Shown in pieces: positions 6,759-22,403 of a DNA stretch of 64,000 bases. Within the stretch, counting starts at the first letter, position 1. Each line of letters starts with the position of its first letter. The notes beneath the pieces were generated by a model, which was not told where the DNA came from, did not search any database, and was given only the letters and a program-made list of their open reading frames with translations. A program made the position numbers and the translations under genes. The stretch comes from an uncultured Verrucomicrobia subdivision 3 bacterium (GTDB lineage Bacteria > Verrucomicrobiota > Verrucomicrobiia > Limisphaerales > UBA11358). The stretch spans positions 2,070 through 66,069 of the forward strand of contig CAIWFB010000194.1 in NCBI GenBank assembly GCA_903911825.1, in the 5' to 3' direction.

Positions 6759-7064
6759 TCAGGTGGCGAACAAGGCGTGGAGATTCATCGCCCCATGTTT
6801 GACCCGCAGCAAGACCAGTTCTTTTTCGCGGGCGGTATAAAAAATCAAGTAGCGGGGAAAATCTTTGACTGCATAGGTGCGGATGCCGTCGGGCTGCAAA
6901 TCGCGGCGCACTCGCCCGAGCTGCGGATTTTTCTGAAGCAGGGCGAGCGTTCGGTAAATGGAGTTTTCCCAGCGCGTGGCAATTTCCTTGTTGGCTTCGC
7001 GGGCCAGATATTCCACGCCCTCGGCAAAATCCGTCTCGAAGACGGAACTGAACAGGAGCTTCAT
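6759..7064 (-). CDS. Type II toxin, ParE/RelE family
   Basis: The 101-aa product has the typical ParE-like C-terminus (IFYTAREKELVLLRVKHGAMN). It overlaps the upstream small gene by 4 nt. Confidence 0.72.
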   Translation of the reverse strand: MKLLFSSVFETDFAEGVEYLAREANKEIATRWENSIYRTLALLQKNPQLGRVRRDLQPDGIRTYAVKDFPRYLIFYTAREKELVLLRVKHGAMNLHALFAT

Positions 7065-7318
7065 CCGCGCACCTTGGCCTTGGCTTTCGCGGCTAGGTCG
7101 CGCAGGCGATCCAGACTGCCCGGGCGAAATTCACTCGCCAGCGCCTCATCAATCCACTTCTGCTGGGTCTTGGAAACTAGCGCATCTTCCAGATCAAAAC
7201 TCATTTCGATACGCGCCATCGCTTCCTGATTCACACTCCGGAAATTGCGTCCAGCCGAAGCTGCCAGCCGCATTTTAAGTTCTTTGGGGATGCCTTTGAC
7301 CTGTAAGTCTGCGCTCAT
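7061..7318 (-). CDS. Ribbon-helix-helix antitoxin (Arc/FitA-like) partner of the ParE toxin
   Basis: The 85-aa product has an N-terminal RHH pattern (LQVKGIPKELKMRLAASAGRNFRSVNQEAMARI). The ATGA overlap with the toxin gene supports the pairing. Confidence 0.6.
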   Translation of the reverse strand: MSADLQVKGIPKELKMRLAASAGRNFRSVNQEAMARIEMSFDLEDALVSKTQQKWIDEALASEFRPGSLDRLRDLAAKAKAKVRG

Positions 7319-7348: not shown

Positions 7349-8281
7349 TCAATCCATCACCGCCGCGAAGCGCAGGCCGCGCGTGCTGACGCGCAATTCT
7401 TTGAAGCTGAATTCCTGCATCACCGCTTCAAAAATCAGCACGCCCGTGAGGATGACATCCGCCCGTTGCTTGGGCAGACCGGGGATTTCTTTGCGTGCCG
7501 CGAGCGGCAGGCTCCAAAGCCGTTCGCGGTGGGCGGAGACTTGTTCCAGCGTCAGCACGGCGCGTTCGATTTTATCGCGGTCGAAGCGATCTAGCTTTTT
7601 TTCCACGCGCGCGAGAATACTCGTCGTGCCGCCAGTGCCGATGAGTTGGATCTCGCCGCGCTCGTTATTCAAAGCCGGCTCCAGTTGTGGGTGCACTTCG
7701 TGATTCAGAAAAGCGCGTAACCAATCGCGGCATTTGGTGAATTCCGCTTTGGTCGGCGGGTCGCTGTGCGGAAATTTTTCCATCAAACGCACCGTGCCGA
7801 GCGGAAAGCTGTGGGCAAAGTGTTTCTTGGTGCCCTGGCCCACGATGAATTCCGTGCTCCCGCCGCCGACATCCAGCAGCAGCAGCGGATGCGTGGCAAG
7901 TTCGGTGTCCGTGGCGACGCCTTGGAAAGCCCATTCAGCTTCGCGGGCGCCAGAAATAATTTCCGTTTTCAGGCCGCAAGCGCGTTCGATAGCGTCGGTC
8001 AAGTCGCGGGGATTTTTGGCATCGCGCGCGGCGCTGGTGGCGATGACGCGGATGGATTCAGCTGACCGCTCTCGGGCGATTTCAGAAAACTCCCAGACGG
8101 CCGCCGCTGTGTGCGCGATACTTTCAGGCTGTAGCTGATGCGTTTCGTAGAAACCTTTGCCAAGACGAGTCTGCTTGGATTCTTCGTGGATGGGCGTCAC
8201 CTCGCGACCGCGCACATCCGCCACCAACAATTTGATTGAGTTGGTGCCGACATCAATCACGGCGCGACGAACAAGTTCCAT
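7349..8281 (-). CDS. Ppx/GppA-family phosphatase (exopolyphosphatase / pppGpp phosphohydrolase)
   Basis: ASKHA-fold motifs are present (AVIDVGTNSIKLLVA, LLDVGGGSTEF, GTGGT). The length is 310 aa. Confidence 0.85.
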   Translation of the reverse strand: MELVRRAVIDVGTNSIKLLVADVRGREVTPIHEESKQTRLGKGFYETHQLQPESIAHTAAAVWEFSEIARERSAESIRVIATSAARDAKNPRDLTDAIERACGLKTEIISGAREAEWAFQGVATDTELATHPLLLLDVGGGSTEFIVGQGTKKHFAHSFPLGTVRLMEKFPHSDPPTKAEFTKCRDWLRAFLNHEVHPQLEPALNNERGEIQLIGTGGTTSILARVEKKLDRFDRDKIERAVLTLEQVSAHRERLWSLPLAARKEIPGLPKQRADVILTGVLIFEAVMQEFSFKELRVSTRGLRFAAVMD

Positions 8282-8321
8282 GCGCGCTCACTTTAAATTT
8301 TTTCCGGCCCGAAACCAAAGG

Positions 8322-10463
8322 CTAATTTGTGACATTTACCGGCGCGACCTCAACGTGCGCGGCGCTGCTGGCGGTGCGGGTCAAATTGCGCGCTTCGAGA
8401 TGCACGAGGGCATTGATATCGAGAATCAAACCCACGCGACCATCTCCGAGAATCGCGGCCCCGGCGAGCAGATGGTTTTTGTAAACCATCATGTCGTTCA
8501 AATTTTTGATGACGACTTCCTGTTTATGCAGCAGGCCGTCCACGAGCAGGCAGCGCAAATCGTTACCCGCTTGCACGACCACCACGATTCCTTCCGACGC
8601 ATCCGTTTTGGTACGCGTGCCGGCGCTGAACAGTTCGTTCAGGCGCAGCAAGGGAATGATGCGGCCACGGACATTCACGACTTCCGCGCGGTTTTGCACG
8701 CGGGAAACCATGCCCGGCTGCGGGCGGAACGATTCGCGCACCGAGAGCGTCGGGAGGATGTAGCGTTCTTCGCCCACCTTGACGATGAAGCCGTCAATGA
8801 TGGCTAGCGTGAGCGGCAAACTGATTTTGAATAGCGTGCCCTTGCCAGTCTGCGACGAGATTTCCACGCGCCCACGGAGCCGTTCAATGTTTCGGCGCAC
8901 CACGTCGAGACCGACGCCGCGTCCGGAAAGATCGGTAATTTTTTCCGCTGTGGAAAAACCAGCGGCGAAGATGAAGTGAAAGATTTCTTCGTCCGAAAGT
9001 TTCGCGTCCGCTGCGACCAAGCCGCGCTCCACAGCTTTCTGAAAAATTTTATCTTTGTTCAATCCCGCGCCATCGTCTTCGATTTCCACCACAATGGTTC
9101 CGCCTTGATGATAGGCGCGCAAAGCCAGTGTGCCAGTGGGCGACTTGCCGGCGGCGACCCGCTTTTCGCTCGTCTCGATACCGTGATCCATGGAGTTACG
9201 GATCATGTGGAGCAAGGGATCGTTCAATTCTTCCACGACGCCGCGATCGAGTTCCGTGTCTTCGCCGGTCGTGATGAATTGCACTTTTTTGGAATGCTTC
9301 GCCCCGATGTCGCGCACGACGCGGGACATCTTTTGGAACACGCCGCGAATGGGCACCATGCGCAGCGACATGCTGACGCGCTGCAATTCTTTCGTGATAC
9401 GCCCGAGCTGCGCGATGTTGCGCACGACCTGCGGGTTCACATTGGAAAGTTCGTTCAGATTCTGGCCGACGAGCGATTGGGCGATGACCATTTCGCCGAC
9501 GAGATCGAGCAGGCCATCGAGCTTGCCGGTATCCACTTTGACGACGGAAGCGTGTTGTTTATCTGCGGCCGGGGCGTGTTCACCAGCCTCGACGGCAGCG
9601 GGCGTTGGGCCGGAAGTTTTGGCGGCGGCGACGGGTGCGGCATGCGCTTTGCCATCAATGATGTCCTGCGCCTCCATCTTCAAGTCGGCGGTCGAAATGA
9701 CAATCGCCTTCACGGGCCGCTTGCCGGTCAATTGACCTTCAATCTCATCAATGAACTGCTTGAGCACATCGCGGCCGCGCAAAATGGTTTCGATGACCGG
9801 CGCATCAATCACGATTTTGCCCTGCCGCGCCTGATCCAACAACGATTCGAGCACGTGCGCGAGGCGGTTGATGGGCAGCAAATTCAAAAATCCGGCGCCG
9901 CCTTTGAAGGTATGGAACGCGCGGAAAATCGTGTTCAACATCTCGGAATCGTCCGGCTGATTTTCCAAGACGAGGACGCCTTGTTCGATGTTGTCGAGGT
10001 GCTCGCGAGATTCGGTGATGAATTCCTGCAGCAACTCCGCGTCATCCGCCAAATTCAAGTTTAGTGGTGGATCATCCGTGTGGACAGTCGGGCTGTTCGG
10101 TTCGACGGGGGCCGCAGGCACGGGGGCCGTCGCCACAACCACGATGGGCTCATTCGCTACGGGCGGGGCAAGCTCGGGCATGGGCGGCGCTGCGCTGGCC
10201 AGCGCGCGGACTTGCACCAGCAAAACCTGCAACCAAGCGATGTCATCAAGGGAGAAATTCGCTCCGGATTCAACGATTTTCACCATGCGCTCCCAGGCAT
10301 CCGCACAGAAAGCCGTCAGCTTGGGAATATCTTTGGCCTCATCGCGGAGGTTGCCGATCAAATCCAGAATAGGAAATTGACCTTGGGTGTCTCCGGCCTT
10401 GGCGGTGGAGACTTCCACTGCCAATTGACCGGCCAATTTGATTATCCGACTCGCATCGCTCAT
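8322..10463 (-). CDS. cheA: Chemotaxis-type histidine kinase CheA
   Basis: Present are an Hpt motif (FRAFHTFKGGAGF), a dimerisation region, a HATPase domain (EDDGAGL, GRGVGLDVV) and a C-terminal CheW-like domain. An extra roughly 150-aa N-terminal region precedes Hpt. I set the start at the ATG at 10463; the track ORF starts at a TTG at 10493. Confidence 0.9.
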   Translation of the reverse strand: MSDASRIIKLAGQLAVEVSTAKAGDTQGQFPILDLIGNLRDEAKDIPKLTAFCADAWERMVKIVESGANFSLDDIAWLQVLLVQVRALASAAPPMPELAPPVANEPIVVVATAPVPAAPVEPNSPTVHTDDPPLNLNLADDAELLQEFITESREHLDNIEQGVLVLENQPDDSEMLNTIFRAFHTFKGGAGFLNLLPINRLAHVLESLLDQARQGKIVIDAPVIETILRGRDVLKQFIDEIEGQLTGKRPVKAIVISTADLKMEAQDIIDGKAHAAPVAAAKTSGPTPAAVEAGEHAPAADKQHASVVKVDTGKLDGLLDLVGEMVIAQSLVGQNLNELSNVNPQVVRNIAQLGRITKELQRVSMSLRMVPIRGVFQKMSRVVRDIGAKHSKKVQFITTGEDTELDRGVVEELNDPLLHMIRNSMDHGIETSEKRVAAGKSPTGTLALRAYHQGGTIVVEIEDDGAGLNKDKIFQKAVERGLVAADAKLSDEEIFHFIFAAGFSTAEKITDLSGRGVGLDVVRRNIERLRGRVEISSQTGKGTLFKISLPLTLAIIDGFIVKVGEERYILPTLSVRESFRPQPGMVSRVQNRAEVVNVRGRIIPLLRLNELFSAGTRTKTDASEGIVVVVQAGNDLRCLLVDGLLHKQEVVIKNLNDMMVYKNHLLAGAAILGDGRVGLILDINALVHLEARNLTRTASSAAHVEVAPVNVTN

Positions 10464-10539
10464 GTTCAGGGTTGTCGGACTCGGGTCCAACAAGGTTTCA
10501 TCGGCTAACCCTGAAAACGACTGAAGGAAAAACTCTGCC

Positions 10540-11934
10540 TCACGCCGCGCCCAGCAGATAATCTTCCAGCCGCGTGTGGCGAATGACGTTGCGCACGGCC
10601 GCCGTGGGATTCTTGAACTGCAGATTCAGGTCGCGGCGCTTGAGATTCTTTTTGAAGCGCAACATCAGGCCGATGCCTGTGCTGTCCACGAACGTCACGC
10701 GCGATAGCTCGATCACTACCGTCATGCCCGCCGTGGCCTGCGTCAGCTCGGATTCCGTGTAGGCGCCGAGTTCCACCGCGTTGAGCGCCGTGACTTCGCC
10801 GGACCAGCGGATGGATAATTCCTTCTCCTGCACCCCGCTCGTCACCACCGGCGCGCGGGCGGCGCTTTCCATGAGAATACGCGCCCCTTGCACGCTGGCT
10901 TGCACCGTGAAAAATTCCTCCAGCTTCATCAGCTTCAAGGCGGCCTCCACGGCGGGCTTGGGCGAAACGAGGAAAAATTGATAGCCCAACTCCCGCGCGC
11001 GGCGACGTAGCTTGATGAGAATGCCCACGCCCGTGCTATCCACGAACGTCGTCGCCGATAGATCAAACATCACGTGGCCGCTCTCCACCGCGCGCAACCA
11101 TTCCGCCTGATACGTGCTCGCTTCCGCTGCGCCTAATTGCTCCGGCGCGCGAATGACCAGATTGCCGAATGGATCGGGAATCACTTCTGCTTTCGCCGCC
11201 GCCGCCGCTTTTAATTTCTTTTTGCCGCGCAATTGCCAGCGTTGGCGCACCACGGCGGCGTTGAATTTCCACGAATCGCTCCACGAAACTTCCTTGGCCT
11301 TGCCCACCGTGCCCGTGAGAAAATCAAACGTCATGCCCGCGCCCAGCGTGAAGGGCACGCCCGACTCGCGGTAATTCATGTTGATCCACTTCTCCTGTTT
11401 GGGACAACCGAAGGCCACGAGCAAAATATCCGGCTTGGCCTCGCGCAACCGGCGCAGGATGTCGCCGTGATCCATCTCCAGCAACGGCGCTTCCGGTGGC
11501 GAATAGACGCCTACGAGATTCAATTGGGGATGCCGCGAACGGATCTTTTCTCCGACGGCCGCGTCCGTGTCCGCGCCGCCGAGCAGAAAGACGCGCCAGC
11601 CGTTCTTCTCCGCCAGCGCGAGCAATTGCGGGATCAGGTTCGCCGCCGTCACGCAGCCGGGCAGCGGATTGCCGAGCATCCGCGAGGCGCGGACGACGGG
11701 CGTTTCTTCGGCCAGAATCAGATGCGCATCGAACAGGATGCGGCGGAGCTCCACGTCTTCCAGCGCGGCGGAGAGGAAATTCACGCCCACCGTGGTGGCG
11801 TAATGCGGCTGGCGCGAGCCGATCATCTCGGCGGCCAACGCGAGGACATCCGCCAGCGTGACGTTATCAAACGGCACGCCGAGAATGGCGATCGGGCTGC
11901 GATCCAATTTATTTACGATGTTATTCGCCTGCAT
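10540..11934 (-). CDS. WecB/TagA/CpsF-family glycosyltransferase fused to two C-terminal STAS domains
   Basis: The N-terminal ~230 aa match the WecB/TagA/CpsF pattern (ILGVPFDNVTL..., FLLGG, VAFGCPKQEKWI). Two STAS domains follow, each with the phosphorylatable DSTG motif (TFVDSTGVGILIKL and TFVDSTGIGLMLRF). I set the start at the ATG at 11934; the track ORF starts at a TTG at 11973. Confidence 0.8.
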   Translation of the reverse strand: MQANNIVNKLDRSPIAILGVPFDNVTLADVLALAAEMIGSRQPHYATTVGVNFLSAALEDVELRRILFDAHLILAEETPVVRASRMLGNPLPGCVTAANLIPQLLALAEKNGWRVFLLGGADTDAAVGEKIRSRHPQLNLVGVYSPPEAPLLEMDHGDILRRLREAKPDILLVAFGCPKQEKWINMNYRESGVPFTLGAGMTFDFLTGTVGKAKEVSWSDSWKFNAAVVRQRWQLRGKKKLKAAAAAKAEVIPDPFGNLVIRAPEQLGAAEASTYQAEWLRAVESGHVMFDLSATTFVDSTGVGILIKLRRRARELGYQFFLVSPKPAVEAALKLMKLEEFFTVQASVQGARILMESAARAPVVTSGVQEKELSIRWSGEVTALNAVELGAYTESELTQATAGMTVVIELSRVTFVDSTGIGLMLRFKKNLKRRDLNLQFKNPTAAVRNVIRHTRLEDYLLGAA

Positions 11935-12084: not shown

Positions 12085-12741
12085 TTAGGCGGCTCCGCGA
12101 TTTTTCCAGCGCCAACCGCCGACCAGCAAGGCGCTCAAGCCCAGCAAACTCCAAACGCCCGGTTCGGGAACGGCGACGGTGGAGAATTGGATATTGTCGA
12201 GGATGCCACCGGTTTGAGCGGGAGTTCTAAAAAGTATTTCTCCCGTTTGGCCAGCGTAAGACGAAATATCGGCCCCATAAATCGTGTAGCTTCCAGTCGT
12301 GCCGATTACAGCAAACGACAGTGCCTGATTGTTGAATGTAATTTGCATTCCACCAATGCTTCCCAAAAAAATCAGGGACTGAGCCGAAAAGGGAATCAGA
12401 CCGGTCTGACCAATGGCGGCGCTATGTGCTCCGCCCACTGAGCCACCTTGTAGGAACATGAAATATTTTCCCTGAACTGGCGGGTAACTTACTGGGTTAT
12501 TCGTGCCATAAATATTAATAACGGGTCCGCCAAGACTATAACCATTGGAAACAATGTAGGTATCAGCAAATCCATCGTAGTAAGGAATCCAACCAGGAAT
12601 TGCATTCGTGGCGGATACGGTGCCGCCAAGCCGCCCAGCAGTAAATGTAGCACTCTCAAAATTCAGATTCACAAACCCCTGCGCCTGCACCATCACCACA
12701 CTCACTTGCAGCCAGATCAAAATGAATAGTTTAGTTTTCAT
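12085..12741 (-). CDS. PEP-CTERM sorting-domain secreted protein
   Basis: It has a signal peptide (MKTKLFILIWLQVSVVMVQAQG) and the C-terminal motif VPEPGVWSLLGLSALLVGGWRWKNR (PEP, then TM, then a basic tail). By eye it is more A+T-rich than its neighbours. Confidence 0.8.
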   Translation of the reverse strand: MKTKLFILIWLQVSVVMVQAQGFVNLNFESATFTAGRLGGTVSATNAIPGWIPYYDGFADTYIVSNGYSLGGPVINIYGTNNPVSYPPVQGKYFMFLQGGSVGGAHSAAIGQTGLIPFSAQSLIFLGSIGGMQITFNNQALSFAVIGTTGSYTIYGADISSYAGQTGEILFRTPAQTGGILDNIQFSTVAVPEPGVWSLLGLSALLVGGWRWKNRGAA

Positions 12742-12784: not shown

Positions 12785-13174
12785 TTAACTTTGCTCCGAG
12801 CCCAGCAATTTCTGCACTTCGCCCAGCAGTTGATTCGGACTGAATGGCTTGGCCAGAAAGAGCGCGGCGCCGGAAGCTTCGGCTTCCACTTTGGTCAGCG
12901 CGTGGCCTTTGGCGGTGAGCACCACCACGGGAATGGCGCGCGTGGCGGGATTTTCCTTCAACTGCCGCAGTGCGCCCAAGCCGTCCAGCCCCGGCATCAT
13001 CACATCCAGCACGATGAGCTGCGGCAATTGCGCGCTGGCGGCGGCGAGCGCTTCGCGGCCATCGCGGCAACTGATGACTTGGTAGCCGCCTTTTTTGAAG
13101 GTCATCTCCAGCAGCCGCAACATGTAGATCTCGTCGTCGGCCAACAGCACTTTTTTCGGTTCGGTCGGGTTCAT
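12785..13174 (-). CDS. Single-domain response regulator (CheY-like receiver)
   Basis: The 129-aa product has the receiver residues: LLADDE, the phospho-acceptor Asp in LIVLDVMMPGLDG, VVVLTAKG and LAKPF. It overlaps the upstream gene by ATGA. Confidence 0.9.
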   Translation of the reverse strand: MNPTEPKKVLLADDEIYMLRLLEMTFKKGGYQVISCRDGREALAAASAQLPQLIVLDVMMPGLDGLGALRQLKENPATRAIPVVVLTAKGHALTKVEAEASGAALFLAKPFSPNQLLGEVQKLLGSEQS

Positions 13175-14949
13175 GTCAGGTTTCGGATGAAAAGGAACGT
13201 CTGGTCATCGGCCAACGGCGCCTCGCCGCGAAACGCCGCCAGTCGGGCGAGCAACGCTTGCTTGCCGGTGATGGCGTCGCGCGTTTGCGCGGCGGCTTCG
13301 GCGAACAGGCGGGTCAATTTATTTTCCGCGAGCATTTCACCGGTGGCATTGCGGAGTTCGCTCAAGCCATCGGTGTAAAGCAACGCCGCCGCGCCCGCCG
13401 CGAGCGCGGTGACCGTCTGCGGATACGTCGTGTCGGGTTCGATGCCGAGCGGAAAACCCGCGCTGCCGGGCGCGACGGCATCGGCTTCGCCCGCGCGCCA
13501 CACGAGCAATGGACAATGCCCGGCGCTGGCGGAGATGAGTTCGGCGCGGGCGGGATTCACATAAACCACTTTGGCGGTGATGAACATGTCCACGCGCGAC
13601 AGGTCGGGGAAGAGAATGCGATTGGCAGCGGCGAGCAATTCGCCCGGCGCGGAAAATAATTGGGGCATCGAACGAACGGTGCTGCGCAGCACGGCGGCGA
13701 AGAGCGCGGCGGGCACGCCTTTGCCCATGACATCGGCGATGACCAACAACACCGCGCCGTCGCTCGCAGGAATGGCATCGTAAAAATCACCCCCGACCTG
13801 ACGGGCACTTTCGCACGACGCGGCCAGCGCGAACGGCGGGCACGCGGGCAAATGCGCGGGGAGCAGCGAGCGTTGGATGTCGGCCGCAATCTGCAATTCC
13901 CGCTGCGTGACCTGCGTGCGCGTGCGGTCGTCGAGCAGGCGGGCATTGACGATCTGGATCGCGAAGAAATCGATGAACGAGTGGAGCAAGTTCACTTGCG
14001 CCGCCGTGAAAGGACGTTCCGCCGCGCGTCGCCCGAGTGTGGCGGTGCCGACGAGCTGATCCGCCACAAAAAACGCGTGGCAAACGCCATGGCCCAAGGG
14101 CATCAACGCACGGAGCGGGTCGCCTTCCGGCAGCGGTTCTTCGGGCCCGAACCAGATATCCTGGTGATTCCGCGCGGCACCAACTTCAGCAGCAGCGGAA
14201 TTTTTCCCCAACGCCACGGGCGGCAACTTGGCTCCGGTTTCCGGCGCGGAAAAAACCGTTTCCAATTGCGAGCCATCAGCGGAAACCAGGCGCAACACAG
14301 CGGCATCGGCTTCGGCGATCTGCATGAGATCGCGCAAGAGGCGCGGGGCGAATTCGCCCAAATCCGTCTGCACACCGAGCTCGGCACTGTAACGGAACAT
14401 GGCCACGAGACTTTCGTAGCTGGACGCCAGCTCGGCAGTCATCTCGGTCAGCGCGGTTTCGGCGTCGGCGAGTTTCTGCTGCAACTGGCTGACGTCGGGA
14501 AATAATTCATGGCCGCCCGCAGGCCGAGCGCGGCGCAGCACCAAAACATTTTCGGCCAAGCCGCGCAGATAGAAAATTTTATCCGTCAACGATTCCATCA
14601 AGTAGAGGCCGCGACCGTGCTCGGCGTCTTCTTCCGGCAACTTGATTTCCGTGGGCCACTCGAAGCCGGCAGTGTGATCGGTCACGCGCACTTCGATGTC
14701 GCGGGCACCACAGGAAACTTCGATGGCTACAGGAGATTTCCGCGCCTCGGGGCTGGCGTATTTGACGGCGTTGTTGGCCGCCTCGACGAGCGCGAGTTCC
14801 CACGCGCCCAGCTCGGCTTCGTTCAAACCGCGTTCCGCCAGCCAGCGGCCGACCTGCTGCGTGGCCCCGCGCACGGCGATAAATTCGCACGGAATTTCCA
14901 GGCGCAACACGATCCGATGGTCGGCATTGGGGCTGTTGGCGGCACTCAT
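13171..14949 (-). CDS. Fusion protein: RsbW-like HATPase (anti-sigma serine kinase type) + GAF + PP2C/SpoIIE phosphatase
   Basis: The N-terminus reads ELALVEAANNAVKYA...VTDHTAGF...GRGLYLM (HATPase_c_2 type). The centre is GAF-like. The C-terminus has PP2C motifs (GGDFYD, VIADVMGKGVPAA, TDGLSE, DDQTFL). I set the start at the ATG at 14949, which makes an ATGA overlap with the upstream kinase stop; the longer track ORF has an Arg-rich, implausible leader. Confidence 0.85.
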   Translation of the reverse strand: MSAANSPNADHRIVLRLEIPCEFIAVRGATQQVGRWLAERGLNEAELGAWELALVEAANNAVKYASPEARKSPVAIEVSCGARDIEVRVTDHTAGFEWPTEIKLPEEDAEHGRGLYLMESLTDKIFYLRGLAENVLVLRRARPAGGHELFPDVSQLQQKLADAETALTEMTAELASSYESLVAMFRYSAELGVQTDLGEFAPRLLRDLMQIAEADAAVLRLVSADGSQLETVFSAPETGAKLPPVALGKNSAAAEVGAARNHQDIWFGPEEPLPEGDPLRALMPLGHGVCHAFFVADQLVGTATLGRRAAERPFTAAQVNLLHSFIDFFAIQIVNARLLDDRTRTQVTQRELQIAADIQRSLLPAHLPACPPFALAASCESARQVGGDFYDAIPASDGAVLLVIADVMGKGVPAALFAAVLRSTVRSMPQLFSAPGELLAAANRILFPDLSRVDMFITAKVVYVNPARAELISASAGHCPLLVWRAGEADAVAPGSAGFPLGIEPDTTYPQTVTALAAGAAALLYTDGLSELRNATGEMLAENKLTRLFAEAAAQTRDAITGKQALLARLAAFRGEAPLADDQTFLFIRNLT

Positions 14950-17900
14950 AAGCGCGTTTGTTGACGAAGCCAGTGCTGAAGTTTTTCCGCCGCGCCCGGG
15001 GTTTGCGCGGAAATTTTTTCCAGTTCTCGAATCACTCGTTGGGCGTCGCGGCCTTCGGACGCATCTTCGACGGCGAGGAATAATTCGCCTAGCGCATTCA
15101 GGCCGAACAAGCGCGCCAAGCCTTTGAGCGAATGCGCGGCGCGCTGCAATTCGGGCCATTGTTCATCAACATGCAAGCGGTTGAGTTCGGACAGTCGCTC
15201 GGGTAATTCCGCCAGAAAATCACTGGCCATTTCCACAACGGATTGGCGATCCAGTTCGGTGCACAGTTGTTCGAGTCGCGTGGGATTGAAGTCCTCGTGC
15301 GAACCATCATCGGCGGGCACGGCGGCGAGGAGCGCCTGGTAAAGTTGCTGCGCGGTGAACGGCTTGGCGAGGTAATCGTCCATGCCCGCCGCGAGGCAAC
15401 GCTCGCGTTCGCCGACAAGCGCGTTGGCGGTGAGGGCGATGATGCGGACGTGGCGCTGGGGATTTTTCTCGGCTTCGATTTTGCGAATGGCGGCGGTGGC
15501 TTCGAGGCCGTCGAGCTCGGGCATGTTGCAATCCATGAGCACGGCATCAAATTCGCCGAGAATGAAACGATCCACGACTTCGCGACCGTTCACGGTCCAA
15601 TCCGCTTTGGCGCCGAAGGACGCGAGCATCAATTGGCCGAGCTTGCGGTTGAAAGGATGATCTTCCGCCGCGAGAATTTTTAGTCCGGAAATGGGCGTTT
15701 GCACCGCGCCGCTGGGGTCGCGGCGGCGGAGCTCGGTTTCCGTGACGGGCGTCGCGGGGCGGATGGCTTCAACTTTCTCGCGGAGCACGAGGCTGACGAG
15801 CGCGTTGAAAAACGGTTCTTCTTTGGCTGGCTTGAGCAAGACGCTGGCAAAACTGGCGATCTCTTTTTCATCCGCTCCGACACTGGCGGTGGGGCTGGAG
15901 AGCAAAATGAATTGCACCTGTTCGCGGCTCGCCACGATCAGATCGCGCAACTCGGCGCCGCCGGTGATGAGCATTTCATCGTCCAGCAACACCACGGGAA
16001 TCGGCGCGGTGCGCGAGCCGTGTTGGAGTTCGCGAAACAGTTCCGGCACGGTGGTGGTGGCCCGATTTTCCACGCCCCAACCGCGCAGTTGTTCGCCGAG
16101 GGATTCACGCAGATTCGCACTGGTGGCAGCGATCAAAACGCGCAAAAAAACCAGGCCGGGAAAATTGTGAGGTAACGGCGCGGTCGCAGCGGGGGCCAAC
16201 GGTAATTCAAACCAGAAGGTGGAACCCGCGCCGCTGGTGCTGGTCACGCCGATCTTGCCGCCCATCAATTCCACGATTTTACGGGAAATGGCGAGGCCGA
16301 GGCCGGTGCCGCCAAATTTCCGCGACGACGAGGTGTCGGCCTGCGTGAACGGCTGAAATAATTTTTTGATCTGTTCGGCCGTCAAGCCGATGCCGGTGTC
16401 GGTGACTTCAAAGCGCAAATTAATCTTGCCCGGCAAGGCGAGCAGTGATTCCACGCGCACGGTGACTTCGCCGTGCTCGGTGAATTTCACGCCGTTGCCG
16501 ACGAGGTTGAGCAGCACTTGTCGCAAGCGCGCGGCGTCGCCGACCACGCGAGCGGGCACGGTGCGTTGGACGATAGCGGTGAGGCCAAGCGATTTTCCAG
16601 GCTCGCGCGAAACGGAATTTTCCAGCACGCTATCAATGACGGCGCGCAGGGAAAACTCCTCCTGCGCGATATTCATTTTCCCCGCTTCAATTTTGGAAAA
16701 ATCGAGGACGTCGTTGATGACAAGGAGCAGAGAATTGGCGCTCTCGGCGGCGGCGCTGGCGAATTCGCGCTGGCGCGGGTCGAGACGCGTCTGGGTGAGC
16801 AGCTCAATCATGCCGAGAATGCCGGTGAGCGGCGTGCGAATCTCGTGGCTCATGTTCGCGAGAAATTCGCTCTTGGCGGCGTTCGCCCGATTAGCCTGCT
16901 CGGCGGCGGCGCTGGATTCATTCGCGGCGAACTGCAACTGGCGATTCACCTGTTCGAGCGCGGCCTTGGCTTCCTGCAAAGCGAGTTCCGCTTTTTTGCG
17001 CGGCGTGATGTTCTGGATGACGGCTTGAAATTCAGCGACTTTATCCGCGCTGGAATCGAGGCGACGCAAATTATATTGCTGCCATTCAATGTGGCCATCG
17101 GCAGCTTCGGCACGCCGATCGAAATTCAGCACCGGCTTTTCCTCGGGCAACTGGATGATGTGTTCCTGAAGCGTCCGCGCTTCGTTTTTGACGAGGTCGT
17201 GGTAGAAATTGGTGCCGAGTAATTCCGCCTCCAACTTGCCGTGGAACCGACAGAATGCCGGATTTACAAAGGTGATTTGGCCGTCGGGCCGAAAGCGGCA
17301 GATCAAATCTTCCTGGTCCGCGACGACCGCGCGCAGCCGTTTTTCGTTTTGCACCAGGTCCCGCTGAGCGCGGCGGCGCTCCGCAGCGGCGGCGGCGAGG
17401 AGGAGATTGGAAATCGCCAAAATGCCGATGTAGCTACCGACGAGCCGCAGGCTGTTGGCTTCATTGCCCGTCACGAACGGCCCGCTGCCCTGTTTCAGTG
17501 AATAGATCGCCAGCGTGGCGACGACTACCGTGCTCGTCGCCGCACCGCGCGGGCCAAAACGCAGCGCGCTCCACACTAGAAAGGGATAAGGCAGATAAGC
17601 CAGCGGATATTGTTGCGGCCCATAAACAAACCAGGTGTCGAACGCCAACAAGGTGCCGCCCACCAAGCCCGCCGCGCAGACCAAGGCTTCGAGACTACGA
17701 ACTAAATTCAAGCGCACCGAGGACGGCGCAGCCCACGTAATGAGGACCGGCGTGATCACCAGCGATGCCAAAGCGTTCGGCACCCACCAGGCTAACGTCA
17801 CCGGAAAAATGGCATCCCACGGAATTTTGCCGGCATACGCCAAGCCCACCGCCGTGAAACAGGCATTGACCGTGGTGCCGAGCACGCTCGCCAGCAGGAT

Positions 17901-18269
17901 GTAGCCCACCGCATCGCGCGTTTGCTCCATCGCATTATCGAAATTCACGAAGCGCTTCAGCAGATACGCACAGATGATCGCGCCAAAGGTGTTACCCAGC
18001 ACCAGGCCCAGCGTGGACAGACCCAGCGGGGCGCCACTCATGAAAGAAACTAAAACCACGCCCAGCGCGATCCCCGGCCAGTAGCCGTAGCCAAAAATGA
18101 GAATCGCTGCGAGCGCCACACCGGCGGCGGGCATCACTAATTGAGTGCTCCCAGCCAGAAAGGCGGCCTCCCGACCGAGCAACCCGCCCATAAAATAAAG
18201 CGCCATCAGCATCACCACGCGCGTAGCGGTGGTCAGGTGCGATTTTTGGGGGCGGTTCACGACGCCCAT
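14946..18269 (-). CDS. Hybrid sensor histidine kinase (MASE1 membrane domain-PAS-HisKA-HATPase-degenerate REC-REC-Hpt)
   Basis: The 1107-aa product has a multi-TM MASE1-like N-terminus, a PAS domain (FVNPAFCRFHG), an H-box (FLANMSHEIRTPL), G-boxes (DTGIGL, GGTGLGLAIS), a receiver (AVLMDCNMPELDG...LAKPF) and an Hpt (AAHSLKGLARLFG). Confidence 0.9.
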   Translation of the reverse strand: MGVVNRPQKSHLTTATRVVMLMALYFMGGLLGREAAFLAGSTQLVMPAAGVALAAILIFGYGYWPGIALGVVLVSFMSGAPLGLSTLGLVLGNTFGAIICAYLLKRFVNFDNAMEQTRDAVGYILLASVLGTTVNACFTAVGLAYAGKIPWDAIFPVTLAWWVPNALASLVITPVLITWAAPSSVRLNLVRSLEALVCAAGLVGGTLLAFDTWFVYGPQQYPLAYLPYPFLVWSALRFGPRGAATSTVVVATLAIYSLKQGSGPFVTGNEANSLRLVGSYIGILAISNLLLAAAAAERRRAQRDLVQNEKRLRAVVADQEDLICRFRPDGQITFVNPAFCRFHGKLEAELLGTNFYHDLVKNEARTLQEHIIQLPEEKPVLNFDRRAEAADGHIEWQQYNLRRLDSSADKVAEFQAVIQNITPRKKAELALQEAKAALEQVNRQLQFAANESSAAAEQANRANAAKSEFLANMSHEIRTPLTGILGMIELLTQTRLDPRQREFASAAAESANSLLLVINDVLDFSKIEAGKMNIAQEEFSLRAVIDSVLENSVSREPGKSLGLTAIVQRTVPARVVGDAARLRQVLLNLVGNGVKFTEHGEVTVRVESLLALPGKINLRFEVTDTGIGLTAEQIKKLFQPFTQADTSSSRKFGGTGLGLAISRKIVELMGGKIGVTSTSGAGSTFWFELPLAPAATAPLPHNFPGLVFLRVLIAATSANLRESLGEQLRGWGVENRATTTVPELFRELQHGSRTAPIPVVLLDDEMLITGGAELRDLIVASREQVQFILLSSPTASVGADEKEIASFASVLLKPAKEEPFFNALVSLVLREKVEAIRPATPVTETELRRRDPSGAVQTPISGLKILAAEDHPFNRKLGQLMLASFGAKADWTVNGREVVDRFILGEFDAVLMDCNMPELDGLEATAAIRKIEAEKNPQRHVRIIALTANALVGERERCLAAGMDDYLAKPFTAQQLYQALLAAVPADDGSHEDFNPTRLEQLCTELDRQSVVEMASDFLAELPERLSELNRLHVDEQWPELQRAAHSLKGLARLFGLNALGELFLAVEDASEGRDAQRVIRELEKISAQTPGAAEKLQHWLRQQTRL

Positions 18270-18425
18270 TTTTTAGCACGCTTCATTCAGCGAGCCTAGC
18301 GGGAAGTTGTCATTCATCTACCGCGGAAAATTTACTGAAGACGGAAAAATTATTTACCTGCGCGGCGGCAACTGGCATTGTCTCCGCGAGGATTCGGATC
18401 GCGGACTGCCAAAATTATTTTTGCC

Positions 18426-21400
18426 ATGCACACTCAATTGCCAGCTCACTTGATCGCCCACATCAACGTCAAACTCGCTCTCATCGGCTGTTCGCCGGTG
18501 CCGCTTGAAGGCGATAAAGAATTCGTCGAAATCGCCGCCGCCATGGCCGCGCAATCGCGGGAAAAAGATCGTTTGCTCGGAAATTACCTCTGCCCGGCCG
18601 ACCAGCGCATCCAGACGTTTCTTCACGATTATCTCGATGATATCCCTACGCCGAAGTTGCCCACGCGCACCTTCACGCTCGATCGCCCCGGCCTCGCCCG
18701 CGTGCTGTCGCTGCCGGTGGATCGCAATGATTTTGCGTCCGACATCATCAATTCTTACCGTGTCAAACAAGGCGTTTTGCACAATCCGAAAAGCGATCGT
18801 CGCACAACGGCGGGAATTTTTCACGTCTGCGAAGGCGGCCTACCCATTCCCGACGACAAACTCGGCGTGCCAAAAGCGACGTTCGCCAAAATCCTGCAAC
18901 TCGCGCTGACGCCCCCGGCGGAATTATTAAAATTACCGTTCACCTCCACGCAGCCGAAACCGGCGGAATGTTTCGTCTCGCTGCTGCTGCGCCCGCTCGT
19001 ATGCCCGGAAGTTCCCGGTTTCACGTCTAAAAAATCCATGGAGGTGCGCTTTTTCGTGCCGGGCAACTTGGTCAGCAACCTGGATTTCGTCGAAGCTATT
19101 TTCGAAAACGGCGGCGATCCGATTTTGCCGGAGAACGATTCCGCGTTGGACACGGAACATTGGAGCGGCCACACCGGCTGCGTGATTCTTGCGCCGCACC
19201 TCATCCGCGCCACCAAGAAATCCGTCGGCCTGCCACACTTCGATCAAGCTACGGAACGTCAGCGCCGTGATGGCATGTGCTGGAAGACCGAAGACGAACT
19301 TTACAACAAGGGAAATGCTTTCAAGCTCACTTGCCGCGACGAAGCGGGCGTCATCCTCACCATCATCGCGGACAACTATTTTGGTTACTGCAAAAAAGAA
19401 GTGAAGACGCAGTTGAGCTACGCGGCGAATCTGTTTGGCATTGCCGAGGAAGAACACGCGGGCGGCGCGCTCGTTTATCGCAGTTACGATTTGGGCGAAG
19501 AATTCAGCGGTGAAGATCACGTCCGCAACACCGGCCACACGTTTGATGAGATGGCGAAATTATTCGCAGGTGTCATGGAAGTGAAACCCGAAGGCTACGC
19601 GATTGATAAAAAATTTCCCGAGATCATCTACGTGCCGCACGACGCGCACTTCGACTTACACACGCAGAAAGTTTCGTGGACGAACACCACCGGCGATCAC
19701 AGCATCAAGCTTTCGCCCGGGAAAAATTACGTGCGCCCCTCTGGCTACCAAGTGCGCATGGAAAAACCGCCCGGCTACGGTCGCCAGTGGCGTTTGGTCG
19801 CGACGGTTGCGGAAGGCACCTTCTGCCACAAGCCCTGCACAGTTTCCGGCGGCGGCAAATCGGAAATTTCCAAACCCATCACCGACGCAATTTTGACCGG
19901 GTCCATTTACGTCGCCGACGTGAAGAATGATTTCGACCGCGTGGAAGAACTCATCAATCGCGATTACTCCAACCGTTTCGCCGAAGCGTCGCGCAAAGAT
20001 CATCGCAGCGTGCTCTCGCCGGAACGTTCGCTGGGTTCCGTCATCAAACTACTCACGCCGGACGAGCATGATTACACGCCCGCCTACAACACCTGGATCG
20101 CCGGCGTGCCGCAACACGTCAAAGAACTTGTCTTCGTCGTGAAACGTTATTTTAAACCGGAATGGGGCGCGAACTGGCGCGATCATTTCAGCGTGGACAT
20201 AATCAACGGCACGCCCGGCAACGAACTCAAATGCGACAATCGCAAGCTGGTCACGACCTATTTGCGCGTAGGTTTCGCGGCGGATGGCGCGTGGCGCACG
20301 TTCGGTTTGCGTAAAGATTTTCACCCCGCCGTGAAGGTGCAGATGGAAGACGACATCACGGCCTCGACCGTCGTGCCCGCTAGCCGTTTGGAAAATTTAC
20401 CTGAGGGCACGGACAAAAATCTCTCGCTCAAATTCGTTCAGAATACGGAACAACGTTTGTTCCAACGGCCCGACGACGCGATTCATCGCGGCTACGACAA
20501 GCAGGCGGAATTGGATTTCGTGCAGCCTGAAAATTTCTTTTCCAACTATCAACCGCTCACGCCCAAAGACGCTCAGGAATTGGTCGAAGACGCGCTGGGT
20601 TTTCATCAATTCACTGCGCCCATGCAGAAGTTCATTCAGGAAGTCGCCACGACGGGCGAGCCGGATTATTTTGTCTGCACCGCCAATCCGCGTATCGTGG
20701 ACGGTAAGCCCACAAAAAATCCGCGCTACCTCCAGAAACGTCCTGACCTCGTGCGCGCGGGCGAAACGTATCTCGCCGAAATCTCCACCCGCCTGCGCCG
20801 TCGCGTGCCGCCGGGTCTGCCGCTGCATACGCCGGTGACGGCCGTATTGCCGGGACGCCGCAATAATCCGCCCGAAGCTGGCATCCGCGCGCTCGCGTGC
20901 TACAACCCGGTTCACTACATGGAATTGCCGGAGCTGTTCATGGAAGTCATTTGCAGCATGACGGGCAAATCGCCTTCCACCACCGGCGCCGGTTCCGAAG
21001 GCGCGCTGACGAAAGGACCGTTCAATGCGCTGCCCCCGATCATTGACCTGAACAACGCCCTCGTGTCGTTCATCCTCACGGGTCACAACGCGTTCGTCAC
21101 CGCCGCCGGATACGTCGGGCCCAACTTGCGCGTGGATCACGATGTCAGTTTGATTGTGCCGGAAATCTGGTGCCGCCTGACCACCGAGGAGCGCGATCCC
21201 AAATTTCTCATCGCCAATCGGTTTCTGGAAAAATGCCAGGACTTCGAGCACGGCGGGAAGAAAGTGCTCGCGAGCCGCCTCGGCTGGCGCATCAATGCGC
21301 GCTTCGTGCACGCGTTCTTTGGTCGCGTCTTCAATCATCCGCACGCCGTGTTCACCGAAGCGATGCTCAAGCCGGAGTTGCAGGGCAAAGACATCTTCGT

Positions 21401-21839
21401 GGACGGCATGGACAACATTCTCGCCACTCAAAAACGCGTGGCCAAAATGTATTTCGACGATGGTAGCATTGCGCAAGCGAGTCCGCCGCTGAAGGCGCTC
21501 CTGCACATCATGCTGCACGATGAATTTGAGGGTAAAGGTTTGGAACACGCCGATGTGCGAAAACTCTTCACGCGCGAAAACCTGCTGGCCAGCGATTGGT
21601 ATGCAGCGCGTTTGGTCGCGAAACAAAAGGTGGATCGTAAGCTCTGGAAGCGGCACGTCGAATATCTGGCGAACTTCTTGAAGCGCCCGAATTACGCCGA
21701 CATGGCAGAGCGCTTGAACATTGGCGAACGCCTGACGAACGCCCGCAAAACACTCGCCGCCGTGGAAGCGCCGGAATATCTCCAGCAACTCATCGGCACG
21801 ATTGGAGCGGAGCCGGTGGAGAATTATTTGGTGAAGTAA
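18426..21839 (+). CDS. Large (1137 aa) conserved soluble protein of uncertain function; tentative candidate PPi-dependent PEP carboxykinase-like enzyme
   Basis: It is a single uninterrupted ORF with ordinary, non-repetitive composition and no TM segments or signal peptide. I set the start at the ATG at 18426. The function guess rests only on the unusual ~130 kDa size class and the overall enzyme-like character, not on motifs I can verify. Confidence 0.6.
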   Translation: MHTQLPAHLIAHINVKLALIGCSPVPLEGDKEFVEIAAAMAAQSREKDRLLGNYLCPADQRIQTFLHDYLDDIPTPKLPTRTFTLDRPGLARVLSLPVDRNDFASDIINSYRVKQGVLHNPKSDRRTTAGIFHVCEGGLPIPDDKLGVPKATFAKILQLALTPPAELLKLPFTSTQPKPAECFVSLLLRPLVCPEVPGFTSKKSMEVRFFVPGNLVSNLDFVEAIFENGGDPILPENDSALDTEHWSGHTGCVILAPHLIRATKKSVGLPHFDQATERQRRDGMCWKTEDELYNKGNAFKLTCRDEAGVILTIIADNYFGYCKKEVKTQLSYAANLFGIAEEEHAGGALVYRSYDLGEEFSGEDHVRNTGHTFDEMAKLFAGVMEVKPEGYAIDKKFPEIIYVPHDAHFDLHTQKVSWTNTTGDHSIKLSPGKNYVRPSGYQVRMEKPPGYGRQWRLVATVAEGTFCHKPCTVSGGGKSEISKPITDAILTGSIYVADVKNDFDRVEELINRDYSNRFAEASRKDHRSVLSPERSLGSVIKLLTPDEHDYTPAYNTWIAGVPQHVKELVFVVKRYFKPEWGANWRDHFSVDIINGTPGNELKCDNRKLVTTYLRVGFAADGAWRTFGLRKDFHPAVKVQMEDDITASTVVPASRLENLPEGTDKNLSLKFVQNTEQRLFQRPDDAIHRGYDKQAELDFVQPENFFSNYQPLTPKDAQELVEDALGFHQFTAPMQKFIQEVATTGEPDYFVCTANPRIVDGKPTKNPRYLQKRPDLVRAGETYLAEISTRLRRRVPPGLPLHTPVTAVLPGRRNNPPEAGIRALACYNPVHYMELPELFMEVICSMTGKSPSTTGAGSEGALTKGPFNALPPIIDLNNALVSFILTGHNAFVTAAGYVGPNLRVDHDVSLIVPEIWCRLTTEERDPKFLIANRFLEKCQDFEHGGKKVLASRLGWRINARFVHAFFGRVFNHPHAVFTEAMLKPELQGKDIFVDGMDNILATQKRVAKMYFDDGSIAQASPPLKALLHIMLHDEFEGKGLEHADVRKLFTRENLLASDWYAARLVAKQKVDRKLWKRHVEYLANFLKRPNYADMAERLNIGERLTNARKTLAAVEAPEYLQQLIGTIGAEPVENYLVK

Positions 21840-21910: not shown

Positions 21911-22177
21911 TCAAGCGACGGAAACTTGCGGGCGCGGAAACCGTCCGCACACCGCATCATCCACCCAAATATCTTCGTCCAATTCTTCCCAGCGTAAGGC
22001 CAAGCCGTTCAGCCGAAGTTTGGCTTTTTGCAGAAGATTTTCCGGAGCTTTTGCCAGCAGCGGAAATTTGGCAGCGGGAAAACTGACGAACCGTCCGTCG
22101 GCCAGTTCAAGACAGACGCGCCGAGCTTCCACCCAGCAACGCAAGGCAATCGTTTCAGTTTTTGGCTCAATGACCAT
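21911..22177 (-). CDS. DUF2442-family small protein
   Basis: The sequence ...ALRCWVEARRVCLELADGRFVSFPAAKFPLLAKAPENLLQKAKLRLNGLALRWEELDEDIWVDD matches the DUF2442 pattern. I set the start at the ATG at 22177. It overlaps the upstream DUF4160 gene by 11 nt. Confidence 0.7.
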   Translation of the reverse strand: MVIEPKTETIALRCWVEARRVCLELADGRFVSFPAAKFPLLAKAPENLLQKAKLRLNGLALRWEELDEDIWVDDAVCGRFPRPQVSVA

Positions 22178-22403
22178 GCGTTTGAATATAGGCTGCCAGA
22201 AGTTTTTGGCAATTGTCTTCAACTAACTCCGCAACACGATTTAATTCGGCCGGGGCAAAACCGTGATTGGACGCGAGCGAAACTGGCTGCAACCAAAATT
22301 TGGCTTCGCAATCGTCACGTTCAACGTGGATGTGCGGAGGCTCGTTCCCTTCACGACTGTAAAAGTGAAAGCGATACGGCCCGATACGCATCACAGTTGG
22401 CAT
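22167..22403 (-). CDS. DUF4160-family small protein
   Basis: The 78-aa product reads MPTVMRIGPYRFHFYSREGNEPPHIHVERDDCEAKFWL, the characteristic DUF4160 N-terminus. It pairs with DUF2442, as is common for these families. Confidence 0.8.
   Translation of the reverse strand: MPTVMRIGPYRFHFYSREGNEPPHIHVERDDCEAKFWLQPVSLASNHGFAPAELNRVAELVEDNCQKLLAAYIQTHGH

Follow-up and report, generated by a model that had tools for sequence, protein, structure and literature searches.

A kinase-GAF-PP2C fusion with a separate receiver as a probable sigma-independent partner-switching module in Verrucomicrobiota

What does a protein regulate when it carries both the serine kinase and the serine phosphatase of a partner switch on one chain, and no sigma factor gene lies near it? 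This question is raised by a locus in an uncultured Verrucomicrobia subdivision 3 bacterium (GenBank assembly GCA_903911825.1, contig CAIWFB010000194.1), of which a stretch of 64,000 nucleotides (nt), hereafter the window, was analyzed. Three genes lie there on the minus strand: a hybrid sensor histidine kinase (14946-18269, 1107 amino acids (aa)), a fusion of an RsbW-type kinase, a GAF domain, and a PP2C phosphatase (13171-14949, 592 aa), and a stand-alone receiver (12785-13174, 129 aa). On balance, the locus probably encodes a partner switch that works without a sigma factor and resembles SypE/SypA, but is split, a kinase-GAF-PP2C protein being served by a receiver in trans. Control of surface polysaccharide production is its most likely role.

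The three genes are directly chained. The hybrid kinase and the fusion share a 4-nt start/stop overlap (cttATGAgtg, 14949-14946), and the fusion and the receiver share another (gacATGAacc, 13174-13171). The initial annotation had described three genes chained by ATGA overlaps, with the fusion translationally coupled to a His-Asp phosphorelay. Both descriptions hold: the open reading frames (ORFs) were recovered, all on the minus strand, the two junction sequences were read directly, and the fusion is in an operon with a His-Asp phosphorelay and a receiver. A longer ORF for the fusion, beginning at 15159, was discarded because its start lies within the Hpt coding region and the orthologues begin at the ATGA. 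The same gene order was found at 97% protein identity in two independent metagenome assemblies, where a PEPCK-like gene diverges from the kinase, which is followed by the fusion, the receiver, a gene for a 212-aa protein, a gene for a WecG-like protein with two STAS domains (WecG-STAS), a CheA-like gene, and Ppx. Therefore, the layout is a product of neither chance nor assembly. Promoter and terminator scanning provided no informative operon boundaries, with terminator-like sites occurring at the shuffled expectation.

The bifunctional character of the fusion is supported by Pfam, by sequence matches in the PDB, and by an AlphaFold2 (AF2) model. Its RsbW-type serine kinase domain, HATPase_c_2, is encoded at 14533-14877 (75.7 bits), the GAF domain at 13951-14364, and the PP2C/SpoIIE domain at 13183-13764 (142.9 bits), so that the single chain of kinase, GAF, and phosphatase proposed initially is borne out. 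The GAF domain falls below threshold in the whole protein and reaches 23.1 bits, against a Pfam cut-off of 22.4, when isolated; it was matched in 15 of 15 fusion orthologues. A profile search of this region against PDB sequences returned no match, and the AF2 model (predicted local distance difference test score 78.9) displays an alpha/beta domain between two long helices there. The PP2C fold of the model matches SiaA (Foldseek, target TM 0.78); the whole-model search returned PP2C matches only, and structural support is limited to that domain. Among PDB sequences, the fusion matches Rv1364c, RssB, and SiaA, and its catalytic motifs align to theirs.

Motif conservation was assessed in an alignment of 26 fusion orthologues (64-84% identity). 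The PP2C motifs are invariant (GGD-F-D at 386-391, ADVMGKG at 405-411, TDG at 526-528, and DD at 581-582), and the metal-binding Asp residues whose presence the initial annotation had left to be checked, D388, D391, D406, D527, D581, and D582, are kept in all 26. The first of these motifs, GGDFYD in the window's protein, lies just upstream of the Pfam SpoIIE envelope. In the kinase domain, the N-box (E56, N59, N60), the G1 residues D91 and G95, and the G2 motif GRGL (112-115) are likewise invariant, and the three boxes align to those of the Rv1364c kinase domain. The search for homologues of the fusion gave more than 2,300, of which the best 120, all from Verrucomicrobiae metagenome bins, have 64-100% identity and a length of about 592 aa.

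The upstream gene supplies the candidate phosphodonor. Pfam identified in its product MASE1 (17373-18215, 139 bits), PAS (16995-17339), HisKA with His475 (16680-16877), HATPase_c (16194-16541), a Response_reg receiver with Asp913 (15330-15677), and Hpt with His1046 (15024-15233). The phosphorelay set is complete, with HisKA, HATPase_c, Response_reg, and Hpt all above the Pfam cut-offs. All domains assigned to this protein beforehand were thus recovered by Pfam except a degenerate receiver at residues 711-822 (15804-16139), where the receiver match is sub-threshold (E 0.0036, 17.9 bits) and the assignment is plausible but weak. Full-length MASE1 orthologues stand directly upstream of the fusion in five related loci (L001, L004, L006, L009, and L020). 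The product of the third gene is a CheY-like receiver, as had been thought (Response_reg, 86.9 bits), with Asp13/14, Asp57, Thr87, and Lys109 in place; Asp57 and a KPFSP motif are conserved in 67 receiver orthologues.

How widely this arrangement extends was determined by scanning species-representative genomes. The scan returned 79 loci, all from Verrucomicrobiota subdivision 3 (Limisphaerales or Pedosphaera), in which the fusion is 36-73% identical. Genes in these loci were called with a codon-usage model and their products were clustered. Of the 71 loci with enough DNA, 63 have the receiver as the next gene after the fusion, and the two genes overlap by 4 nt in 34 of 64. Immediately upstream of the fusion, 49 of 75 loci have one or two copies of a gene for a STAS protein of about 100 aa, often joined by a 4-nt overlap, and an Asp-Ser motif is invariant in 59 of these small STAS proteins. 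An exopolysaccharide (EPS) gene context was found in 27 of 70 loci. The recurrent neighbors are GT4 glycosyltransferases, a uridine-kinase-like protein, a Bac_transf priming transferase, a phosphodiesterase, and a MatE/flippase-like protein, together with a longer protein that has a weak Bac_transf match at its C-terminus. Because these are polysaccharide genes, the usual home of the family is an exopolysaccharide operon.

A hybrid kinase directly upstream of the fusion was found in four gene-called loci and in L004 (by tblastn), out of about 75, besides the window itself. In 12 of 49 loci, of the EPS type, the same strand encodes, 3-6.5 kb upstream, a hybrid kinase that has the HisKA-to-Hpt part in common. 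Fourteen loci bearing a hybrid kinase were inspected further, five with an adjacent kinase and nine with the kinase 3-6.5 kb upstream; besides the receiver inside the kinase, the stand-alone receiver is the only one within 10 kb and therefore the obvious terminal acceptor. It can be seen that the conserved core is the fusion and receiver pair, normally placed after a stand-alone STAS gene inside an EPS operon, and that the kinase-fusion-receiver block of the window is a derived, lineage-specific contraction of that operon.

Several related loci depart from this pattern. Two tandem fusion paralogues, each preceded by a STAS gene, are present in L029 (~8000-11740), and in L075 STAS, fusion, and receiver are duplicated in mirror image on the two sides of a pair of 263-aa genes, perhaps through an error of assembly. 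In L072-L076 and L079, the most distant loci (36-37% identity), EPS genes are replaced downstream of the pair by genes for what their sequences suggest to be an ABC-ATPase-like protein and a 392-aa membrane protein; the output may differ between clades. An apparent N-terminal fusion of STAS to longer fusion ORFs (L031-L033 and L064) was rejected, the extensions being Pro/Arg-rich, out-of-frame read-through of upstream DNA.

Could the output be transcriptional after all? HATPase_c_2 is an anti-sigma kinase family, and the fusion has weak NCBIfam matches to RsbW and RsbA. On this alternative the domain would be a true anti-sigma factor, as in RsbW and HsbR, the latter of which binds RpoS (PMC6482189), and it would sequester a sigma factor encoded elsewhere; the genome holds 21 Sigma70_r2 matches from which such a factor could come. 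However, no Sigma70_r2 match was found on the whole 92-kb contig, in agreement with the initial annotation that no sigma gene is nearby. Nor does a sigma gene occur among the recurrent neighbors in the 79 loci, where polysaccharide genes are found instead, and STAS domains are fused straight to a glycosyltransferase-like protein. A transcriptional output is accordingly considered very unlikely, and a sigma-independent switch is preferred.

Such a switch needs a STAS partner, and the 92-kb contig has no STAS domains other than the pair carried by the 464-aa product of 10540-11934 on the minus strand (Pfam, NCBIfam), which agrees with the earlier observation that nearby STAS domains are confined to this protein. 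It comprises a WecG/TagA-like domain (11230-11892), STAS1 with Ser300 (10882-11181), and STAS2 with Ser418 (10555-10836), and the phospho-site Ser of the DS(T)G motif (Ser300, Ser418) is invariant in both STAS domains. In 10 of 67 loci, distant ones (37-39% identity) among them, the gene next after the receiver is WecG-STAS-STAS, and in other genomes the WecG-STAS gene lies 10-12 kb downstream in the same cluster. Among 250 genomes of the order, the fusion occurs in 64 and WecG-STAS in 58 (both 36, fusion only 28, WecG-STAS only 22, neither 164).

When queries from the small STAS family were run against the genome assembly, which is 91.5% complete, they matched the two STAS domains of the 10540-11934 product and no others. 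Neither the small STAS gene nor the EPS genes could be located in the assembly. The likely substrate is then the tandem STAS pair with Ser300 and Ser418, and the 10540-11934 protein is most likely the partner of the fusion in the window's genome. The fusion is the only clear HATPase_c_2 protein in the assembly and may be the sole STAS kinase in the cell. Other STAS matches in the assembly belong to a SulP transporter, a glutaminase-STAS-cNMP protein, and a 172-aa STAS protein on contig C278. The second of these, encoded at C336:4110-5960, is a glutaminase-STAS fusion with a C-terminal region judged from its sequence to be cyclic-nucleotide-binding-like. The genome also encodes a receiver-PAS-SpoIIE phosphatase (C314:22729-24432) and a 445-aa protein with a C-terminal SpoIIE domain (C249:5346-6680); a cognate RsbW-type kinase for these two phosphatases was not found in the assembly.

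The WecG-like domain itself appears to have lost its chemistry. In TagA, the catalytic base is Asp65, and Arg83, Asn39, and an Arg-rich C-terminal appendage also contribute, the appendage being essential (PMC6493773). Alignment to the TagA structures 7mpk and 5wb4 places Glu76 at the position of Asp65 (PDGSG becomes AEETP), Cys94 at that of Arg83, and Gly50 at that of Asn39, with Thr37 and the QE motif of TagA kept. The Arg-rich appendage is deleted relative to L018, L047, and L062, whose proteins, designated type a, keep the Asp-Gly, the Arg, and the appendage. With catalytic residues and appendage lost, the window's protein is most likely a pseudoenzyme with two switch domains, and its WecG-like domain is probably catalytically dead. 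The STAS-bearing glycosyltransferase of the initial annotation is thus retained as a carrier of two STAS domains; as a glycosyltransferase it lacks the TagA base motif, Arg83, and the C-terminal appendage, and it is probably not an active one.

From these features the following sequence of biochemical steps is proposed. The MASE1 kinase would sense a membrane or envelope cue and pass phosphate from His475 through Asp913 and His1046 of the Hpt domain to Asp57 of the receiver encoded by the third gene. In trans, this receiver would then shift the fusion between kinase mode and phosphatase mode, probably by way of the GAF domain and the helical-linker dimer ahead of PP2C; a helical linker before PP2C serves as an allosteric element in RsbU-type phosphatases. 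The fusion would thereby set the phosphorylation of the conserved Ser in its STAS partner. In most relatives the substrate would be the 100-aa STAS protein encoded just upstream, and because the module lies inside an exopolysaccharide operon, the output there would be post-translational control of polysaccharide assembly. In the window's lineage, Ser300 and Ser418 would be the substrates and the WecG-like tandem-STAS protein would act as a phospho-regulated adaptor rather than an enzyme, with a polysaccharide or envelope output. A more specific version, offered tentatively and with low confidence, is that this pseudoenzyme adaptor is the true switched partner and that phosphorylation at Ser300 and Ser418 controls its docking on active envelope-polysaccharide or PEP-CTERM export machinery, or on the neighboring CheA-like kinase. 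If true, the adaptor would link a chemosensory-type kinase to the MASE1 phosphorelay within a single circuit that lacks a sigma factor.

A number of observations weigh against the proposed module, and they concern the kinase, the substrate, the output, the phosphodonor, and the standing of the locus in the genus. Regarding the kinase, the RsbW-type catalytic residues expected beforehand are present in the N-box, the G1 Asp and second Gly, and G2, but the first Gly of the G1 box DxGxG is replaced by Thr93 in all 26 orthologues, a family-wide feature. Kinase activity is not assured given this substitution. The kinase domain could accordingly be silent and only dock STAS, leaving the fusion as a phosphatase regulated by receiver or GAF, with another kinase phosphorylating STAS. 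The two further PP2C proteins of the genome, which have no kinases, would suit that arrangement; the invariance of E56, N60, D91, G95, and GRGL suggests selection for nucleotide binding, and no other clear RsbW-type kinase was found in the assembly. A silent kinase domain is regarded as quite improbable, and kinase competence of the fusion as likely but not proven.

With respect to linkage and substrate, the kinase adjoins the fusion only in close relatives. The three-gene block expected to be conserved is therefore confirmed for the fusion-receiver pair and restricted, as regards the kinase, to the closest relatives counted above. Moreover, L004, L009, and L020 lack both a STAS gene upstream and a WecG-STAS gene downstream. 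The co-occurrence of fusion and WecG-STAS (odds ratio 9.6, Fisher p 7e-12) carries no phylogenetic correction. There is also the stand-alone 172-aa STAS protein on C278, encoded among housekeeping genes (holA-like, ftsH). This protein, whose STAS domain contains a DS motif, might be the substrate in place of WecG-STAS-STAS, or else the product of a STAS gene that the incomplete assembly does not contain; the completeness of 91.5% leaves room for such a gene, and the same kinase-fusion-receiver layout without adjacent WecG-STAS in the three loci just named fits with it. Against this stand the housekeeping surroundings of the C278 gene, its failure to be matched by the small-STAS family queries, the position of WecG-STAS after the receiver in 10 of 67 loci, and its co-occurrence with the fusion. 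An alternative substrate is thus unlikely, and the tandem STAS pair is retained as the preferred one.

As for the output, the EPS families c4, c5, c7, c9, c10, and c11 had no match in the 91.5%-complete assembly, and the families c3 (GT4), c6 (Bac_transf), and c13 (DHH/CBS) had distant matches only, located elsewhere in it. As the WecG domain looks inactive, the physiological output in the window's own genome is unclear.

The phosphodonor may also be questioned, as a CheA-like kinase is encoded at 8322-10493 on the minus strand, 46 nt downstream of the STAS gene (Pfam: Hpt, dimerisation, HATPase_c, and CheW-like domains; the N-terminal ~150 aa without a Pfam match). No genes for a methyl-accepting chemotaxis protein, CheW, or CheY were found near it. 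Having an Hpt domain, this protein is a possible second phosphodonor, which the initial annotation had not considered, and the receiver might even be its CheY, the CheA-like kinase then setting the switch instead of or together with the MASE1 phosphorelay. Its own Hpt (P1), the lack of its own receiver gene nearby, its position on the same strand as the STAS gene, and the retention of this arrangement in the two 97%-identical contigs are all compatible with this. Nevertheless, a CheA homologue is absent from all 79 related loci while the receiver is almost always present, so that CheA cannot be the conserved donor of the receiver, and the recurrent neighbor in other loci is a hybrid kinase with Hpt. 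The CheA-like gene adjoins the module only in the window's lineage. Its membership in the module is uncertain, and its role as the partner of the receiver is improbable; phosphotransfer from the Hpt domain of the hybrid kinase is preferred.

Finally, five genomes of the same genus contain neither the fusion nor WecG-STAS. Since the contig nevertheless belongs to the genus, the module is an accessory island. Mis-binning of the contig into this metagenome-assembled genome was considered and rejected: its GC content and tetranucleotide composition are typical of the assembly, its MutS is closest to same-genus copies (78-86% identical), and the MutS-Amt-PII-Ppx synteny is kept in the same-genus genome G533, breaking right after Ppx. 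Taken together, these points leave the split SypE/SypA-type module as the probable reading.

Other genes surround the module. Between the receiver and the STAS-carrying gene is a gene on the minus strand (12085-12741) with weak PEP-CTERM matches (Pfam, NCBIfam), indicating a PEP-CTERM-type secreted protein; in relatives, the receiver and WecG-STAS adjoin each other. Its product clusters with no other protein, all 79 related loci lacking a homologue, and the gene is present in both 97%-identical contigs; it is specific to the window's lineage. Divergently upstream of the MASE1 kinase, 18378-21839 on the plus strand encodes a protein of 1137-1153 aa without a Pfam match in the scan of the window's product. 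Since PF26300 (PEPCK_PPi_lobe_2) is assigned to a 97%-identical homologue, the protein is probably a pyrophosphate-dependent phosphoenolpyruvate carboxykinase, and a gene of this kind holds the same position in L001, L004, L009, and L020. A small overlapping gene pair at 21911-22403 (minus strand) is annotated as DUF4160 and DUF2442 in near-identical contigs. On the other side, a ribbon-helix-helix antitoxin and ParE toxin pair is encoded at 6759-7318 (minus strand). This pair, an epimerase, and an M48 peptidase separate P-II from Ppx, which are adjacent in G533.

Understanding of partner switches that act on enzymes, not sigma factors, is only beginning. The target of SypA is still unknown (PMC4517449), and the first direct case, All4160 (2026), was called lineage-specific to cyanobacteria by its authors (PMC13555669). 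The module described here would overturn no current view. It belongs to an uncharacterised and large family, with the homologues numbered above and a presence in about a quarter of the sampled genomes of the order, and would extend this logic to Verrucomicrobiota, in an architecture of its own. STAS-WecG fusions recur, which is a "Rosetta stone" hint that glycan-assembly proteins are direct targets, and the module is compact enough to be a testable case of how a protein that is both kinase and phosphatase is switched by a receiver in trans.

Kinase and phosphatase activities united in a single polypeptide under a phosphorelay are already known from SypE (PMC10120452) and HsbR (PMC6482189). SypE of Vibrio fischeri has an N-terminal serine kinase, a central receiver, and a C-terminal PP2C domain, and it controls SypA at Ser56 in a polysaccharide locus (PMC10120452, PMC4517449). 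The window's fusion resembles it in having the kinase first and PP2C last in one chain, a STAS partner, no sigma factor, and, in relatives, a polysaccharide locus; the syp locus also has a hybrid kinase, SypF. The likeness is one of domains and locus context. The center of SypE is a receiver, whereas that of the fusion is a GAF domain, with the receiver encoded by a separate, translationally coupled gene. SypA is a free STAS protein, while in the window the tandem STAS domains are fused to a WecG-like protein; a STAS partner within a polysaccharide locus, as for SypE, is found in relatives, and in the window only the WecG-like STAS protein remains.

In Pseudomonas aeruginosa, hybrid kinases signal through HptB to HsbR, whose receiver controls PP2C and a kinase/anti-sigma domain acting on the STAS protein HsbA (PMC6482189). 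The phosphorelay via Hpt to a receiver governing PP2C and kinase on one chain thus resembles the one proposed here, and Shewanella CrsR-CrsA is grouped with this system. However, HsbR has receiver, PP2C, and kinase in one chain with a separate Hpt protein, in contrast to the kinase-GAF-PP2C order with a receiver in trans, and the output of HptB-HsbR-HsbA runs through sigma and anti-sigma factors and through a diguanylate cyclase rather than through a polysaccharide enzyme. Rv1364c of Mycobacterium tuberculosis (3ke6), the best PDB sequence match, also combines PP2C and an RsbW-like kinase on one polypeptide, but in the order PAS-PP2C-kinase-STAS, with the substrate domain fused and with no receiver or phosphorelay.

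Control of a STAS-bearing glycosyltransferase by such a switch has already been shown in Anabaena PCC 7120, where, in the HenR/Alr3423/All4160 system, a partner-switching-like kinase and a receiver-PP2C phosphatase control a STAS-fused polysaccharide glycosyltransferase (PMC13555669). The joining of STAS to a glycan-assembly protein is the parallel to the window, where the adjacent kinase/phosphatase would exert such control. In Anabaena, however, kinase and phosphatase are separate, and a single N-terminal STAS domain is carried by a Bac_transf enzyme; in the window, two C-terminal STAS domains are carried by a WecG/TagA-type domain that is seemingly inactive. Literature searches returned no paper describing a kinase-GAF-PP2C architecture with its receiver in trans, the wide occurrence of that architecture in Verrucomicrobiota, or a tandem-STAS partner of the WecG-like kind. 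Compared to the known systems, it is these three elements that are new.

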